From the IMG/VR virus record IMGVR_UViG_2778261639_000014, positions 1 to 25,936 of that record: a DNA stretch of 25,936 nucleotides. The stretch is one strand, 5' to 3'. This document shows, one piece after another, positions 2,920-21,747 of this stretch. The position numbers and the translations under genes are program-made. The notes below the pieces were generated by a model, which worked only from the letters and a program-made list of their open reading frames with translations, had not been told where the DNA came from and did no database searches. Every line of letters starts with the position of its first letter. Position 1 is the stretch's first letter. Origin of the DNA: a virus (lineage: Duplodnaviria; Heunggongvirae; Uroviricota; Caudoviricetes).

Positions 2920-3085
2920 CCACCCTGCCCCCAAAAGTGCATTTATGTGCAGGATGCCGGAGTTTAGCAGTGAATATTTTGATGATCTGCCAGCGTATAT
3001 CCTCGATACAGAAACGATGCTGATGGGGATTAACAGGAAGAATCGCAATGTTAATGATTACAACCGCGCTATCAGCGGTAACTAA
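2759..3085 (+). CDS. Lipoprotein overlapping the preceding gene, o-spanin-like (position of P1 mlp)
   Basis: ORF in another frame overlapping the last ~160 nt of the upstream gene. Lipobox L-S-G-C after a hydrophobic stretch (FASAFLLTLSGC). Start uncertain: 2759 has an AGGAAG SD, internal ATGs at 2780 and 2840. Confidence 0.5.
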   Translation: MNQSKPSMLTGKWNEKLKFRNNWLRRVMFASAFLLTLSGCSGSRSANLTPTKVNHPAPKSAFMCRMPEFSSEYFDDLPAYILDTETMLMGINRKNRNVNDYNRAISGN

Positions 3086-3096
3086 AAGGGATTTTT

Positions 3097-3489
3097 ATGT
3101 CTGATAAAGTAACAGTTAAGCAAACTATCAACAAAGCGACTTCAATCTACAAAATTGAGCACATCACTGTTGGCAAGCCAGGATCTGAACAATACCGTCA
3201 TGCTTTCGAGCTTGCCGCTCAGCTTGGTTTAAAACACCCGGATTGCATTGAGCATGTATTTCCGACCTATGCTGATGAGCAATGTACTCATGTTCTTACC
3301 GAAGAGGATTTTTTCAGCACTGAAGAACGAGAAGGCGTTGATCGCTGCATTGGTGTGATTTGCTCTTCAGTGAGTTATGAGTTATTCCCTAATGTCCATG
3401 AAAATGGTGGTATTGGATACCAATTCCTGTACGAAGGCGATGAGCTTAAATGTTATGAACATGGTCTTCTTATCGAAAGCGTAGAATAA
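3097..3489 (+). CDS. Hypothetical protein (position of P1 upfA)
   Basis: 130-aa ORF with AAGGGA SD. Acidic, Cys/His-containing, no recognised domain. Lies immediately upstream of the plasmid origin. Confidence 0.55.
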   Translation: MSDKVTVKQTINKATSIYKIEHITVGKPGSEQYRHAFELAAQLGLKHPDCIEHVFPTYADEQCTHVLTEEDFFSTEEREGVDRCIGVICSSVSYELFPNVHENGGIGYQFLYEGDELKCYEHGLLIESVE

Positions 3490-3502
3490 TACCCTTCCTT
3501 CC

Positions 3503-3528
3503 AACCGGCTATGTTGGCCGGTTTATTC
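3503..3528 (+). terminator. Intrinsic terminator-like hairpin
   Basis: Inverted repeat AACCGGC / GCCGGTT with 7-nt loop followed by TTTATT, starting 14 nt after the upstream stop codon. Confidence 0.45.
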
Positions 3529-3529
3529 A

Positions 3530-3760
3530 ACTTATCCACAGCATAGATCCAATAAACAGATCCCAAAGAGAACCTAGGAAGATCCAAAGAAGATCCCGGA
3601 TCGCTGTAAGCCGCGCCGTTCATGGCCTGAAACGGGATCAACATTGACTATACGCGATTTTATGTTGACTGTGTGCGATTTTATGTTGACTGCACGCGAT
3701 TTATTGTTGACTATACGCGACAGAAACGTTGACTGTACGCGATTTTAGAGCCTGAATATT
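3530..3760. other. Plasmid replication origin (P1 oriR-like)
   Basis: DnaA box TTATCCACA (3532-3540), five GATC sites in AGATCC heptamer-like repeats (3546-3602), then five direct iterons. Same layout as P1 oriR. Confidence 0.8.
3644..3747 (+). repeat. incC-like iteron array (5 direct repeats)
   Basis: Five copies of TTGACT-N4-GCGAT(TT) starting at 3644, 3665, 3686, 3707 and 3729 (21-22 bp period), immediately upstream of repA. Confidence 0.85.
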
Positions 3761-16729: not shown

Positions 16730-16746
16730 AAATTTATTAGAGCAAA
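16730..16746. promoter_or_regulatory. C1 operator (P1 Op53-like) controlling kilA-repL
   Basis: AAATTTATTAGAGCAAA is the reverse complement of the C1 operator consensus with one mismatch, ~70 bp upstream of the kilA start. Confidence 0.75.
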
Positions 16747-16823: not shown

Positions 16824-17867
16824 TTAACCTATTGCTACTGGTTTTAACAAACCAGCATCAAGTAGCTTGCGAGTTAACCACTGCTGGCCTTTACCCGTTA
16901 ATTGGGGCGTCAGCCGTATCTGGTAGCCATTTTCATCATCCAGCACCACTTCTTTCACCGTGAAATATCCGGCGTTGATGTACTGCTGGCGCGGTACGTT
17001 TTTGCGCGCACCAAAAGCCATGAGAATGCCGTTCTGGCGCAACCATGAGAAAAGGGCGTTTTGCTTAAGTCCAACGACCTTTGCAAAGTTCCCGATCAGG
17101 ATTCCATTAGCCGCTGATACCCGGTCGGCAAAATCGACTTTAGGGGCTGCGGCCACCAGCTGTTGTTCCAACTGCATTTTCTGTTCTGCCAACTCGGCAG
17201 CCAGGCGTAGAGCTTCTGGTAATGTTTGGGGGATCGATGGGGTAGGTGAGTTTGCCTGCTGCAATTCTTCCAGTTTGTCGATCAGCGAACGGCGGACCGC
17301 TTTCGATTCGCGCGCGGCGACTCGCAGGGCTTGTTTGTAGGTCATGGTTATGACCTCAAAAGAGCGCCCGGCCCTTGTGCCATGGGATTTTACGAAAGTT
17401 TCGTAAAATTCCCCATCAAGTTCATCCTTAATTCTATTGAGAAAATCGTTATTGCGGATCTCATTTTCCCTACATAGCTTGCGCGCATCATTAACCATCT
17501 TTAACAGCGTCTGGCTGTCGATTGTGTCTCCAGTGTTGGAGATAACATTCACAGCTGGTGATGGCGTAGCTGAAGCAACAGATGCTGGTTTTTTAACATT
17601 CAAATTATTACTGGTCATTCTATGTGCCTCCTTTCTCATTTCTGCTGCCACCGTTGCGTAACGTAGACGTCCTTGTTCAATCAAATAATCCCTGATCTCG
17701 GCTATCAGTAGCCTGTTGATCACAGCCTTATCTGTTCGGGTATAAAAACGCCTGGTTATCATGAAATAGTTGGCAATTGCGCCGGGGATCTCCCGTGTCG
17801 GCATACAGGCAGTATGCAGGGCGATCGCTTCGGCTATTTCATTACGGGTGACGAGAGGTTTTTTCAT
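16824..17867 (-). CDS. ant: Antirepressor (P1 Ant-like)
   Basis: 347 aa. Central Rha/AntA-like region and C-terminal antirepressor domain shared with KilA. Preceded by an overlapping 73-aa ORF and a C1 operator, as in the P1 immI operon. Confidence 0.8.
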   Translation of the reverse strand: MKKPLVTRNEIAEAIALHTACMPTREIPGAIANYFMITRRFYTRTDKAVINRLLIAEIRDYLIEQGRLRYATVAAEMRKEAHRMTSNNLNVKKPASVASATPSPAVNVISNTGDTIDSQTLLKMVNDARKLCRENEIRNNDFLNRIKDELDGEFYETFVKSHGTRAGRSFEVITMTYKQALRVAARESKAVRRSLIDKLEELQQANSPTPSIPQTLPEALRLAAELAEQKMQLEQQLVAAAPKVDFADRVSAANGILIGNFAKVVGLKQNALFSWLRQNGILMAFGARKNVPRQQYINAGYFTVKEVVLDDENGYQIRLTPQLTGKGQQWLTRKLLDAGLLKPVAIG

Positions 17868-18085
17868 AAAACCCCCTGAACGTCAGCAGAGAAGGGGAGG
17901 TTCCAGTAACTAAGTGAATTGCGCGAGTTAGTAGAAAAACGGGCAGTAAAAATGCAGGGGCCATCAGGCAATTGAGAGCGTGCTTCGTCTTCAGTTGCTG
18001 CGATAACGAAGTGATAGTGGTGTTTTTGGCAGGAGTAAAAGCGCCAGATAAATTCAGGATGAGTAGGGGTAGGGATAGTAGCCAC
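17864..18085 (-). CDS. icd: Icd-like small protein overlapping the ant start
   Basis: 73-aa ORF with GTG start and AGGAGG SD 9 nt upstream; its stop overlaps the ant start. Same size and arrangement as P1 icd as recalled. An alternative 81-aa frame (17842..18087) is also open. Confidence 0.5.
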   Translation of the reverse strand: MATIPTPTHPEFIWRFYSCQKHHYHFVIAATEDEARSQLPDGPCIFTARFSTNSRNSLSYWNLPFSADVQGVL

Positions 18086-18270
18086 AATGGCAGCCTCCTT
18101 TTGCTAATTTAAGGAGCTACCGCGTGAGGTTCCAATCTCAATGGCGGTAGCACTGACTGGGTTGGAACTACCGGCGCAAAAGGGAACCGGCCTGCCTTTC
18201 GGCAGCCCAGCCAGCACTACCATTGATCTCGGAGCTATGTGCTACGTATGGCTGTGCGATGGCATGACAC

Positions 18271-18410
18271 AAAAAAAGACGCTTTTGGCGTCTGTGTCGC
18301 CTTTTGCATTATCCGGGGTCTCAATCCCGGCACCCGTTTTAATGAGGTGCCTGATAAGCATAAACCGAAAATGCCTCAAGGCGCAAGAGGTCAGGCTCAA
18401 TGTAACATCG
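18271..18410 (-). ncRNA. c4-like antisense regulatory RNA region (immI leader)
   Basis: Between the operator/promoter at ~18415-18441 and icd: a T-arm-like stem-loop CCGGG-ATTGAGA-CCCGG (~18311-18336) and a GACGC-TTTTG-GCGTC hairpin followed by U7 on the minus strand (~18271-18292). Fits the position of P1 c4. Boundaries not determined. Confidence 0.3.
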
Positions 18411-18424
18411 GTAGTTAAAAAACA

Positions 18425-18441
18425 CAATTCATTAGAGCAAA
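18425..18441. promoter_or_regulatory. C1 operator-like site (P1 Op51-like) upstream of the immI-like module
   Basis: Core ATTAGAGCAA at 18431-18440 within a 17-mer with ~3 mismatches to the consensus. Lies 4 bp from the pacB stop codon. Confidence 0.6.
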
Positions 18442-18444
18442 TAT

Positions 18445-19929
18445 TCATTCATTAAGCCATGCCAGAGCTTCATCAACCTGCGCTTCGTCTTCGACGCTAA
18501 GCACTTCATCCTGGGGAACATAATCCGCCAGCATAGCGAAACAATATGTATCCCAATGGTCTGGTGAGTGCAGGTTGAGTTTTTTCTTCATATCCTCCTT
18601 ACTCATCACCTTCCATTGACCTGCGGAGTTAATCCCTACAGGGATTTTCGACGCTTCCTCAATAGTTTCATTACCCTTATCCAGTCTCATACGACCAGAT
18701 TTTACGGCCTCTGCGGCTTGAACATTGGCATAAGCACGTTTATCAAAGTACAGGCTCTTATCTTCACGGCTATGCATCTTTTTACCCCAGCGTATACGCT
18801 GTACGGTAATACCATAATACTCGTACATCAGATCCGCCGTTGCTTTACCCAGGCCATCGCCGTCTATCGCTATGGTGATATTGGGGAATCGCTCAGGATT
18901 ACATTCTGCGAAAATTTTGGCGGCAAGCTGCGTTTCTGTAACGTCTGTGTATTCCAGCATTCGATAGTTGATTACACGGCGTTTATTTCGCTGGCCGGAC
19001 ACCATCATGATATTGATAACGGACTTATCCCGTCCCGTACCACCAGCAACGTCCACACATGCAAGCCAGCCCCATCCTTTGGCAATCTTGACTTTCCGCC
19101 GCGTTGCACGTTCAACCTCATCACGTCCAAGAAGGAAGCCATCCTGTGATTTAGGGAATAGGCCGCGTACCTTAATCATGTACATAGGGTTATCACGCCC
19201 GCCGTACTCCGCCAGCTTCATTTTGATAAATGCTGGCGTTACCAACGGTGATTCCTCACTGTTAAGCGTGATCGCCGTATAAACGCCATCAGGGTTACCA
19301 GGACGCTTGGCCAGTTTATGGTGTGTATCGTAGAAATAGCCGCTTGGGCGTGTAGGCTGTGACAGCAATAAGATGCGGTTATCCTGTCCGGTAAGAGCAC
19401 CGGTGATGATACCGAAAGCTCTATCACTGACACCGGAGGCTTCATCGATAATATACAGAAGATGATCTGCGTGTTCACCGGCGAGAGCTTCTTCACTTCC
19501 CAGACGAAAGCCCTTCGGTACTACAGTCCATACACCTTTACCAGTAACCTCATAGAAAGCGGTTTCTGTCAGAACAAAATAATCAGCAAGCCATGGAAAA
19601 CGGCTGGTGGCAGTAGCCCAGTTTATCTTGATGTACTTGAATATACCGGTCATTACCTGCTGAATTTTGTTCGCAACGATAATGGCTCGGGCACCGGGAT
19701 ACATGATTATGAACAACATGATCATGATAGAAGTCATGTCTGATTTCCCGGTACCGTGACCAGACGAAACAGATGTCTTGCTACCCTGTTCCTGCACAGA
19801 CTCAATAATCAGATCCTGCTGCCAGGTAGGTGTTTTGCCGAACAAAACATCAGCGGCAGCAATCCAGTCATAACGATATAGCGCCACCAGCTCGCGCCAA
19901 CGTGGATCCGTTACGCAACTTCTGGCCAT
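18445..19929 (-). CDS. pacB: Terminase large subunit PacB
   Basis: 494 aa. Walker A GHGTGKS, Walker B-like [12 protein letters not shown]-terminal nuclease-like acidic region. Start overlaps the pacA stop. Confidence 0.9.
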
Positions 19930-21730: not shown

Positions 21731-21747
21731 CAATACATTAGAGCAAT
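21731..21747. promoter_or_regulatory. C1 operator-like site upstream of lpa
   Basis: 17-mer with core TTAGAGCAAT (21738-21747). Adjacent to the stop codon of the upstream gene and ~70-85 bp from the lpa start. Confidence 0.55.

Follow-up and report, generated by a model that had tools for sequence, protein, structure and literature searches.

A probable immI-type control region in P1-like phage-plasmid DNA, with a predicted c4 antisense RNA behind an IsrK-type leader RNA

Introduction

The c4 antisense RNA of the P1 and P7 immI operon was reportedly described by Citron and Schuster in 1990. In both phages the leader carries, in order, the operator, the a1 and b1 sites, c4 and the a2 and b2 sites, with b2 at the Shine-Dalgarno sequence, followed by icd and ant1/2. 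The c4 precursor is an RNase P substrate according to PMC4919922, where Hartmann 1995 is cited, and to the summary in PMC5320573. A related arrangement is found in the Gifsy-1 prophage, where IsrK is a terminated short RNA and read-through yields both an mRNA and a processed RNA of about 80 nt complementary to IsrK (PMC4825925). There, IsrK acts in trans to turn on the antirepressor AnrP (PMC4825925), and the model proposed for IsrK, orf45 (STnc1160) and AnrP does not invoke a c4-type repressor (Hershko-Shalev 2016, PMC4825925). The CI RNA of phage P4, with its seqA/seqB/seqC, is likewise described as a tRNA-like immunity RNA made by processing, its pairing partners being repeats up- and downstream on its own transcript (PMC4825925), but it causes premature transcription termination on replication genes rather than covering an antirepressor ribosome-binding site. 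Finally, many P1-like plasmids carry a c4/icd/ant module linked to pacB and c1, an insertion described merely as "two short hypothetical orfs and an antirepressor" (PMC6906374).

Here we analyze a leader within a 25,936-nucleotide stretch of Caudoviricetes DNA, referred to in its entirety as the window. An earlier note on the sequence had proposed a c4-type antisense control of an antirepressor, and the Rfam C4 score (76.7 bits versus a threshold of 45) and the P1 immI-like setting both support this. With a probability of roughly 0.9, the region serves a P1-like phage-plasmid as its immI-type control region, in which a c4 antisense RNA follows an IsrK-type leader RNA. Both RNAs are known, catalogued elements, and the reading is correct but ordinary.

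Layout of the leader and its operon

The leader lies on the minus strand and spans about 340 nt, from a C1-operator-like 17-mer (18441-18425) to the GTG of icd at 18085, in keeping with the ~350 nt first suggested for the distance between operator and icd. It runs through the C1-operator-like site, the IsrK-type RNA (with a1, b1 and a terminator), c4, a2, and b2 with the ribosome-binding site, and ends at icd and ant1 (Table 1). Folded as a whole, it is more stable than its shuffled versions (z = -4.56, with 0 of 100 shuffles as good).

Table 1. Predicted features of the leader and of the genes behind it, in window coordinates.
Feature	Position	Strand	Remarks
C1-repressor operator-like site TTTGCTCTAATGAATTG (putative)	18425-18441	-	Counterpart of P1 Oc4/Op51
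Weak promoter-like site overlapping the operator	18399-18427	-	-35 TTGTGT (18427-18422), 17-nt spacer, -10 TACATT (18404-18399)
Promoter-like site for the IsrK-like RNA	18357-18386	-	-35 TTGCGC (18386-18381), 18-nt spacer, -10 TATGCT (18362-18357)
IsrK-type small RNA (predicted)	18272-18350	-	First part of the leader; Rfam isrK RF01394
a1 site TTGAGAC	18318-18324	-	Loop of IsrK hairpin 2; column of annotated P1 a1
b1 site GCAAAAGG	18300-18307	-	Between IsrK hairpin 2 and terminator
Intrinsic terminator	18271-18293	-	6-bp stem AGACGC/GCGUCU, loop CAAAA, U7; terminator scan
c4 antisense RNA gene (predicted)	18140-18227	-	Rfam C4 RF01695
b' CCUUUUGC	18176-18183	-	12-nt loop of c4 hairpin 2
a' GUUCCAA	18162-18168	-	Single-stranded junction between hairpin 2 and 3' side of closing stem
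a2 target TTGGAAC	18129-18135	-	4 nt 3' of Rfam C4 match; 7/7 Watson-Crick with a'
b2 target GCAAAAGG	18097-18104	-	8/8 Watson-Crick with b'; overlaps icd Shine-Dalgarno
icd Shine-Dalgarno AAGGAGG	18094-18100	-	8 nt before GTG; overlapped by b2
icd, 73 aa, GTG start	17864-18085	-	NCBIfam phage_ICD_like, 53.2 bits
ant1-like antirepressor gene, 347 aa	16824-17867	-	Pfam ANT, 107.8 bits

The operator-like site begins 3 nt past the pacB stop codon. Against an operator consensus it shows 3 mismatches, and a scan with the same consensus found 4 such sites in the window for 0.11 expected. It is identical to the annotated Oc4 of P1 at 13 of 17 positions and takes up the same column as the P1/P7 operator in the leader alignment. 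Two candidate promoters follow. The one overlapping the operator, read from the sequence and its alignment with the annotated P1 promoter, would be the positional counterpart of P1 P2c4/P51a, while the other, whose -10 ends 6 nt 5' of the isrK model match and which aligns with the annotated P1c4 of P1, would correspond to P1c4/P51b. The geometry of this second site recurs with other sequences in the homologous leader L007, in Stx2 phage F039, in phiP27 and in Salmonella phage sal3. A promoter scan of the region called neither site, the first scoring below threshold, and neither the scan nor inspection by eye found a separate c4 promoter in the 43-nt spacer at 18270-18228.

Behind the leader, the 3' end of icd overlaps the start of ant1 by 4 nt, and the length, position and icd overlap of the ant1-like gene are those of P1 ant1. 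A KilA-like protein and a RepL-sized ORF come next, and the series icd, ant1, kilA, repL is colinear with that of annotated P1. From 18058 onwards the DNA is 95.8% identical to P1 icd/ant1, and the downstream genes in general are about 96% identical. The exact Icd protein is recorded in 93 blocks of the assembly collection, and an Icd search of genome contigs gave 6 loci only. Unlike these genes, the leader and c4 have diverged from P1 and P7 beyond the reach of megablast and have another specificity: similarity to either phage starts only inside icd (query position 443), in agreement with the earlier note, which did not take the sequences for those of P1. The left neighbor also differs, being pacB in the window and simABC in P1.

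T-arm-like hairpins, of which one had been noticed before, number two: CCGGG-AUUGAGAC-CCCGG is found within 18330-18313, and GCCGG-UUCCCUUUUGCG-CCGGU, which includes GGTTC, at 18191-18170. A tRNA or tRNA relic was ruled out at the leader, as ARAGORN calls no gene in 17900-18600.

The c4 antisense RNA and its targets

The covariance-model search that had been advised for c4 was positive: the C4 model (RF01695) matches 18227-18140 on the minus strand over its full length (1-87 of 87) with 76.7 bits (GA 45, E 1.2e-13), and no non-canonical pairs are flagged in the alignment. For comparison, P1 and P7 score 68.8 and 69.6 bits. The RNA is built as a long closing stem around two hairpins, and across 14 c4 variants, 12 of the 23 RNAalifold pairs have both partners changed and still pair. 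This covariation scoring does not include hairpin 2, where MAFFT misplaced a gap and shifted the P1-type rows. The 88 nt are identical in L007 and in E. coli plasmid NZ_CP037905. The mature RNA is predicted to be about 79-80 nt long, from G18221 to about 18142-18143, with a candidate U|GGU RNase P-type site at 18222/18221 and GCCA at 18145-18142. These ends are placed by reference to the annotated 77-nt P1 c4 and to the GGW rule summarised in PMC5320573.

The resemblance to P1/P7 c4 extends to the pairing sites. The leader shares the C4 family and the P1/P7 order of elements, with a of 7 nt and b of 8 nt. As in P1/P7, b2 lies over the ribosome-binding site of icd, the predicted 5' processing site carries GG, and the tail reads NCC(A). 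Both target segments are repeated, the b segment exactly (b1 and b2) and the a segment as TTGAGAC/TTGGAAC (a1 and a2). Where relatives have a' GUCUCAA in place of the GUUCCAA of the window, their a2 is TTGAGAC instead of the UUGGAAC found here, a compensatory two-base change. Similarly, b2 covaries with b' in RCS47, 673R5, Stx2 F039, phiP27, sal3, P1 and P7, with alleles such as CCUUUUGC/GCAAAAGG, CCUUUGAC/GUCAAAGG and CCGAUAAC/GUUAUCGG. In 11 of 11 specificity classes, which cover P1, P7, D6, RCS47, JL22, 673R5, an Stx2 phage, phiP27 and a Salmonella phage, a2:a' and b2:b' are fully complementary despite their differing sequences, with at most one G-U each and otherwise Watson-Crick pairs. 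Non-cognate combinations of c4 and target show up to 9 differences in 15 positions, those between the closest classes only 0-2, and the target positions of the window are mismatched at 6/15 against P1 and at 8/15 against P7. When c4 was folded with a target segment or with the IsrK-like RNA (RNAcofold/duplexfold), ddG was -5.0, within the range of shuffled partners, in programs that cannot draw loop-loop (pseudoknotted) contacts.

A different pairing had been put forward in the earlier note, between CATTGAG-containing segments and TCAATGG. These strings do exist, CATTGAG at 18402-18396 and 18143-18137 and TCAATGG at 18226-18220, yet TCAATGG and CCATTGA lengthen the closing stem of c4 at its base when the precursor is folded, and the elements that pair as antisense and target are a'/a2 and b'/b2. 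The closing-stem extension is absent from the 673R5, Stx2, phiP27, Salmonella sal3 and P1/P7 versions. The upstream CATTGAG overlaps the -10 of a promoter-like site, 46 nt 5' of the predicted RNA start, and is missing from the homologous leader L007. CATTGAG is found 11 times in the window, and a regulatory CATTGAG/TCAATGG pairing was rejected.

The same stretch can also be read as coding for small proteins instead of RNAs, namely an "Ash family" protein of 39 aa (18223-18104) and/or one of 68 aa (18448-18242). We consider this very improbable. It is true that the 39-aa ORF matches Pfam Phage_ASH with 33 bits (GA 26), the sole match in Pfam and NCBIfam scans of the leader ORFs, that its UAG stop (18106-18104) abuts b2, and that PGAP labels an "ash family protein" in many plasmids, JL22 having hypothetical proteins over the leader. 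In Gifsy-1, moreover, orf45, which overlaps the c4-like RNA, is translated and coupled to anrP (PMC4825925). However, the 39-aa ORF is unconserved: it has 37-39 codons in the clade of the window, stays open into icd in the 673R5 and Stx2 F039 types, and in our reading of the P1 sequence ends after 14 codons, inside the b' loop. None of the leader ORFs has an NCBIfam match, and the 68-aa ORF, which matches no family in Pfam or NCBIfam, runs across the operator, the two promoter-like sites and the terminator. Compensating stem changes, together with loops that change with their targets, are the signature of an RNA.

The IsrK-type RNA and its terminator

The isrK model (RF01394) matches 18350-18272 over its full length (1-77 of 77) with 59 bits (GA 50, E 1.8e-10). 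Folded alone, this RNA forms three hairpins, at 18350-18330, within 18330-18313, and at the terminator. Hfq binding would be expected of it from the family name. The minus-strand U7 terminator pointed out in the earlier note is present (18293-18271), not as a part of c4 but as the 3' end of the separate, catalogued IsrK-type RNA, as predicted from the model match. Its hairpin is worth -7.3 kcal/mol and is present in all isrK-type leaders; the terminator scan gave 3 such sites in the region for 0.9 expected. As the terminator sits between the sole plausible promoters and c4, the latter would depend on read-through.

As at the Gifsy-1 IsrK locus, a terminated short RNA would form the 5' part of a read-through mRNA whose antirepressor output is obtained by coupling. 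Unlike the window, Gifsy-1 has no icd, and the ORF over its c4-like RNA serves as the coupling ORF. Going by the description in PMC4825925 and by other phages, STnc1160 would be the equivalent of c4. Matches to the isrK and C4 models form a tandem in the window and likewise in those lambdoid phages that were examined; altogether 83 phage records contain this tandem, and the record of Stx2 phage F039 annotates it as such.

The a1/b1 element of P1/P7 (RF03163) can be compared as well. Position and two-hairpin core are the same, a1 lying in the loop of the second hairpin and b1 directly behind it. The c4-a1b1 model scores 22.3 bits at 18363-18310 of the window, below its GA of 46.7 (E 0.0017), and conversely the isrK model covers P1 a1/b1 in full with 35.1 bits, also below threshold, including a terminator-like hairpin and U run. 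Because each matches the other's model, isrK and P1 "a1b1" are probably the same element. Differences lie in the window element reaching the isrK score and not that of c4-a1b1, and in its terminator hairpin, which is much stronger than in P1/P7.

Within the short RNA, b1 is complementary to b' at 8 of 8 positions and is unpaired in the fold except for a 2-bp pairing at its edges. Against the a' of the window, a1 gives 5 Watson-Crick pairs, 1 G-U and 1 mismatch. In 9 of the 11 classes a1:a' is a perfect match, the two exceptions being the window and the leader L017. Because a1 of the window mismatches its own a', the short RNA may be less able here to act as a decoy or to pair in cis.

Proposed mechanism

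A model can be proposed by homology, its steps being taken from the P1/P7 and Gifsy-1 literature. Transcription would start just 5' of 18350, and possibly also at the promoter overlapped by the operator. The majority of transcripts would end at the U7 terminator, giving an IsrK-like RNA of about 79 nt, while the read-through transcript would carry c4, from which RNase P and 3' trimming would release a stable product of about 80 nt. Once released, c4 would pair through its a' junction and b' loop with a2 and b2, covering the icd Shine-Dalgarno sequence and blocking icd translation. Through translational coupling and polarity, no Ant1/Ant2 antirepressor would be made, and C1 repression, hence lysogeny, would be maintained. 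For P51a/P51b regulation and Rho-dependent polarity, the model follows the P1 GenBank annotation and general background on P1. The a1/b1 sites of the short RNA would mimic the target and most likely bind c4, either in cis on the read-through transcript or as a decoy acting in trans. This would tune the amount of free c4, an effect presumably weakened at a1 in the window.

A bolder extension, which we put forward tentatively and hold to be rather less than an even bet, is that in P1-like phages the IsrK-type short RNA is a trans-acting decoy that titrates c4 via a1/b1. The immI region would then be a three-RNA switch made up of target mimic, antisense RNA and mRNA. The long-unexplained a1/b1 of P1 might be the same device, because isrK and c4-a1b1 score on each other's elements, and the window and L017 would be variants in which the decoy is impaired and the set point between lysis and lysogeny shifted.

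Alternatively, c4 could act mainly on the nascent leader as P4 CI does, enforcing termination at the U7 terminator by binding a1/b1 just 5' of it (autoregulation) and causing premature termination by binding a2/b2, instead of blocking icd translation as such. For the c4-like STnc1160, such control was raised by analogy with P4 CI/seqA/seqC (Hershko-Shalev et al., PMC4825925). In the window b1 ends 6 nt 5' of the terminator stem, and by sequence reading the GGCG at its 3' edge could pair, over only 4 bp, with CGCC of the terminator 5' arm, so that c4 binding could favor the terminator. We find this control unlikely, since b2 lies exactly on the icd Shine-Dalgarno in every class, which argues for translational occlusion; the proposed anti-terminator pairing is weak, and constitutive STnc1160 in Gifsy-1 did not behave like a termination factor for IsrK-dependent toxicity (PMC4825925). 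Control of the P4 type and a translational block are compatible with each other.

If c4 blocks icd translation as preferred here, the a'/b' alleles would define the mutual immunity of P1-like elements through the antirepressor circuit. The allele of the window, GUUCCAA/CCUUUUGC, is common to some E. coli plasmids and unlike those of P1 and P7. There is also a consequence for annotation, as records of P1-like plasmids and phages give an "ash family protein" or a "hypothetical protein" where two ncRNA features and their target sites should stand. The reciprocal model matches link the "putative" a1/b1 sites of P1 to the experimentally studied IsrK, and so provide a testable idea of their function. 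This link is incremental and modestly useful, not a new kind of system.

Mosaic origin of the leader

By megablast and alignment, the leader is of the RCS47/JL22/D6 type, not of the P1 type. It is 91-98% identical to D6 immI and to the leader of the pacB-c1-linked c4/icd/ant module (RCS47, JL22, 673R5, pTZ20_1P and many P1-like plasmids), in which the pacB stop, operator, isrK and c4 are identically arranged. The two settings part further on: the pacB-c1-linked module leads to a different icd, a Roi/ORF6N-type ant and c1, whereas the window leads to P1-type icd-ant1-kilA-repL. The part of the window upstream of about 18300 agrees with the pacB-linked module (JL22 50/50 per 50-nt bin), and the part downstream with the canonical immI of L007 type; from 18350 to 18101 the window is almost identical to both kinds. 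Accordingly, a1 is of JL22 type and a'/a2 of L007 type. As read from its sequence, the window is a mosaic, in which pacB abuts the leader and a1 mismatches its own a'.

This setting might be an artefact or a dead end, with the module intact and the leader not a natural unit: pacB-leader-icd-ant1 would be either an assembly chimera or a c1-less deletion derivative. A chimera could have formed across the ~250 nt common to two paralogous modules at the join, and would account for the mixed types of a1 and a'/a2. Under either version it is relevant that the join of pacB to the leader appears in no other record, a pacB-immI join in one piece being found in none of the phages, plasmids and complete E. 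coli genomes searched. We regard an artefact as possible, though on the doubtful side, since natural immI modules clearly do get shuffled: L017 recombines a1 and a' in the reciprocal way, and p88_1577-1 shows yet another arrangement. In the window itself, c4, a2 and b2 share a single parent and are still matched.

Architecture of the leader

The leader between pacB and icd holds members of two curated RNA families, and the circuit to which they belong is well studied. An Rfam scan of the whole window at the gathering threshold returns three matches. Two of them are in the leader, isrK and then C4 antisense RNA, and the C4 match covers the full model without any non-canonical pair being flagged. 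The earlier note had interpreted the region as a leader under c4-type antisense control, and both matches, that of the c4 covariance model itself included, support it. The element is already known, with identical copies in public plasmids. What is added here are the correct pairing sites, the assignment of the terminator to an IsrK-type RNA that is probably homologous to P1's a1/b1 element, and a mosaic origin of the leader with an a1/a' mismatch.

Upstream lies a 494-aa ORF ending at 18445 (-), whose last 250 nt are 100% identical to a JL22 gene annotated as pacB, terminase large subunit. The C1-operator-like 17-mer that follows has three mismatches to the P1 C1-operator consensus, and it aligns with P1's annotated operator Oc4/Op51, sharing 13 of 17 bases. 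Downstream, icd overlaps by 4 nt the gene of a 347-aa ANT-domain protein, followed by a 266-aa KilA-N+ANT protein and a 281-aa ORF, which is the gene order of icd-ant1-kilA-repL in annotated P1. With pacB and the operator-like site on one side and icd on the other, the leader that had been noticed is real, and about 340 nt long. It folds better than its shuffles (z = -4.56), and ARAGORN finds no tRNA in it.

Scanning the window with this consensus gives four C1-operator-like sites (0.11 expected). The other three, at 1285-1301, 16730-16746 and 21731-21747 (all -), have one to three mismatches, and the site at 16730-16746 precedes the kilA-like ORF, where P1 has Op53/OrepL. Just downstream of the repL-sized ORF (15830-14985), a sok antitoxin match (RF01794, 14502-14675, -; 72.9 bits against 59) looks like part of a hok/sok-type toxin-antitoxin module; two relatives (L102, L104) have a 51-aa HOK_GEF gene at the corresponding place.

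Features of the leader, in transcriptional order
Feature	Position	Strand	Remarks
C1-operator-like 17-mer TTTGCTCTAATGAATTG	18441-18425	-	begins three bases past the pacB stop codon
Weaker candidate promoter TTGTGT-17 nt-TACATT	18427-18399	-	overlaps the operator-like site
Candidate promoter TTGCGC-18 nt-TATGCT	18386-18357	-	ends 6 nt before the isrK match
isrK (RF01394)	18350-18272	-	59 bits (cut-off 50), E 1.8e-10, full model
a1 TTGAGAC	18324-18318	-	loop of IsrK hairpin 2
b1 GCAAAAGG	18307-18300	-	shortly ahead of the terminator
C4 antisense RNA (RF01695)	18227-18140	-	76.7 bits (cut-off 45), E 1.2e-13
b' CCUUUUGC	18183-18176	-	pairs 8/8 with b2
a' GUUCCAA	18168-18162	-	pairs 7/7 with a2
a2 TTGGAAC	18135-18129	-	4 nt past the c4 match
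b2 GCAAAAGG	18104-18097	-	overlaps the SD AAGGAGG (18100-18094), 8 nt before GTG
icd, 73-aa ORF	GTG at 18085	-	NCBIfam phage_ICD_like, 53.2 bits

The two RNAs and their transcription

Folded alone, the 79-nt IsrK-like RNA forms two hairpins and a terminator, and the stretch between hairpin 2 and the terminator is predicted to be almost wholly unpaired. The terminator hairpin seen at the outset (AGACGC-CAAAA-GCGUCU with U7) is present, is found by the terminator scan, and is the end of the isrK match. At the gathering threshold, P1 and P7 have c4-a1b1 (RF03163); the window, JL22, RCS47 and D6 have isrK at the same place. At a relaxed threshold, the c4-a1b1 model matches the window at 18310-18363 (-) with 22.3 bits (E 0.0017), and the whole isrK model matches P1 (L003 2234-2315) with 35.1 bits (E 3.9e-6), taking in a terminator-like hairpin and U run. 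Because these sub-threshold matches are reciprocal, the two families are probably descriptions of a single homologous element. Rfam's output places C4 and c4-a1b1 in clan CL00128 and does not list isrK there.

The promoter scan calls no minus-strand promoter. By eye, two candidates can be proposed. The one nearer to isrK aligns with P1's annotated P1c4/P51b, and the homologous leader L007 and the lambdoid-type outgroups F039, phiP27 and sal3 have the same geometry ahead of their isrK matches, with different hexamers. The weaker one overlaps the operator-like site, in the manner of P2c4/P51a in P1. Between the terminator and c4 there is no promoter-like sequence, which leaves read-through as the source of c4. 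This agrees with Gifsy-1, in which deletion of the isrK promoter abolishes a processed RNA of about 80 nt downstream of IsrK (PMC4825925).

In the predicted c4 fold, a closing stem of 16-17 bp surrounds two hairpins, one capped by GAAA and the other with a loop of 12 nt. The literature describes an RNase P cut of the P1/P7 c4 precursor at a GG(W) site, giving an RNA of about 77 nt (Hartmann 1995, via PMC4919922; PMC5320573). In the window, the closing stem has U|GGU at its 5' base and is followed by GCCA, which would suit such processing.

Pairing sites and specificity

The P1 record provides the annotated sites a1, b1, c4, a2, b2 and icd. By our reading of the P1 sequence, hairpin 2 of c4 has b' as its loop and is followed by a', a single-stranded junction, and the window has the same layout. 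The sites were compared in 92 homologous leaders, found by way of the Icd protein in IMG/VR and GTDB or taken from annotated phages, which comprise 67 distinct sequences and 16 site haplotypes. One plasmid leader and three lambdoid-type outgroups carrying the isrK-C4 tandem (Stx2 phage F039, phiP27 and Salmonella phage 118970_sal3) were compared separately. Haplotypes and outgroups condense to 11 specificity classes. The sequences differ between classes, yet in all 11 a2:a' and b2:b' are complementary throughout, every pair being Watson-Crick apart from at most one G-U in each duplex. Alleles include GCAAAAGG, GTCAAAGG, GTCTAAGG, AATCAAGG, GCTCAAGG, GTTATCGG, GTTAGTGA and GATTGTGA for b, and TTGGAAC, TTGAGAC, TTGGTCT, TTAGGAC, TTGGCGT, TTGACAG and TTAGCAG for a. 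Non-cognate pairs of c4 and target mismatch at up to 9 of 15 positions, the nearest classes being only 0-2 apart. In the c4 stems, 12 of 23 predicted pairs are maintained despite changes on both sides. Such covariation would be expected if this is a functional antisense RNA and its loops determine immunity specificity, which is established for P1 versus P7 (PMC5320573; PMC6906374). Judged by its sites, the window's allele differs from those of both.

In five cases (L024/L046, L072/L086, L054/L064, L043/L080 and L088/L091) two c4-icd-ant modules share a contig. Two such modules, a canonical P1/P7-type one and an isrK-type one linked to pacB and c1, are often present together in P1-like elements. 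With 6 of 15 positions different between the a/b specificities of paired modules, their antisense circuits look orthogonal.

The earlier note was largely right about this region, leader and terminator included; its proposed pairing of CATTGAG with TCAATGG is rejected as a regulatory interaction. The strings are present, and TCAATGG (18226-18220) and CCATTGA (18144-18138) flank the c4 stem, to which they add 8 bp across a 3-nt bulge in the MFE fold of the precursor. This extension is not conserved, being missing in 673R5, Stx2 F039, phiP27, sal3 and P1/P7. The second CATTGAG copy, at 18402-18396, lies across a -10-like hexamer ahead of the predicted RNA start; in L007 a different sequence stands in its place. 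The 7-mer is also frequent, occurring 11 times in the window.

The leader might instead code for a small protein, but the probability is low. A 39-aa ORF over c4 (18223-18104, -) ends exactly at b2, matches Pfam PF10554 Phage_ASH (33 bits; GA 26) and is labeled "ash family protein" by PGAP in many plasmids; its Gifsy-1 equivalent, orf45, is translated (PMC4825925). However, the length of the ORF varies: by our reading the P1 equivalent stops after 14 codons, whereas it has 37-39 codons in the window's clade and is open into icd in 673R5 and Stx2 F039. Its nucleotide changes are those of an RNA. The antisense RNA remains the preferred reading, and the Phage_ASH family may largely model an RNA gene. 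In the JL22 record, neither ncRNA nor icd is annotated. Hypothetical proteins gp120 (3053-3259), over the operator/promoter/IsrK region, and gp121 (3414-3659), over icd with a start 27 nt upstream, are probably mis-annotations of the leader.

A proposed model of icd control

What is established for the window is which parts it has and in which order, how these are complementary and covary, and that b2 overlaps the icd ribosome-binding site. Most likely, c4 covers the icd SD by b'/b2 pairing, and a'/a2 would be a second contact. A block to P1 icd translation reportedly causes Rho-dependent polarity on ant as well (Biere, Citron and Schuster, in 1992). Ant1/Ant2 are antagonists of C1 (PMC8198154; P1 record), and silencing of ant needs c4 besides C1 (PMC8198154). 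In Gifsy-1, two forms of IsrK occur, a short terminated RNA and the 5' end of a read-through mRNA. The middle of IsrK pairs with the region downstream, and in trans IsrK turns on antirepressor translation at least 100-fold (PMC4825925). In the window, a1/b1 on the IsrK-like RNA would act as a target mimic and bind c4, either in cis or in trans.

Origin of the leader

Megablast similarity to P1/P7 begins only at 18058, within icd, in keeping with the initial impression that these sequences are not P1's. Leader identity is 93% with JL22, 91% with RCS47, 89% with D6 and as high as 98.1% with E. coli plasmids. The 88-nt c4 is shared unchanged with L007 and plasmid NZ_CP037905. In JL22, RCS47, 673R5 and NZ_CP037905, such a leader heads a second module, pacB-leader-icd'-ant'-c1, described in the literature merely as an inserted antirepressor with two short ORFs (PMC6906374). 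An isrK-type leader precedes the canonical operon, icd-ant-kilA-repL, in L007 and in eight listed contigs whose Icd is exactly that of the window. Compared in 50-nt bins, the window is of the pacB-linked type down to about 18300 and of the L007 type beyond, and over 18350-18101 it is nearly identical to both. The crossover falls between a1 (JL22-type TTGAGAC) and a' (L007-type GUUCCAA), which leaves the window with an a1 that is an imperfect match to its own a' (five Watson-Crick pairs, one G-U and one mismatch). The reciprocal case is seen in L017.

The window's leader directly joins pacB to a P1-type icd-ant1-kilA-repL, with no c1 in view. No intact copy of this join turned up among 50,697 phage records, 72,556 plasmids and 5,426 complete E. 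coli genomes. A rare deletion or recombination, perhaps with loss of c1, may have produced it. The crossover lies inside a stretch shared by two paralogous modules, and the join may also be an assembly chimera across it. Another immI rearrangement is found in the E. coli plasmid p88_1577-1 (L105, NZ_CP074805; 2753-5343), where pacB is followed by an Icd-like fusion ORF, a simA-domain gene, a leader, icd, ant and c1, an arrangement that suggests frequent exchange between the two module positions.
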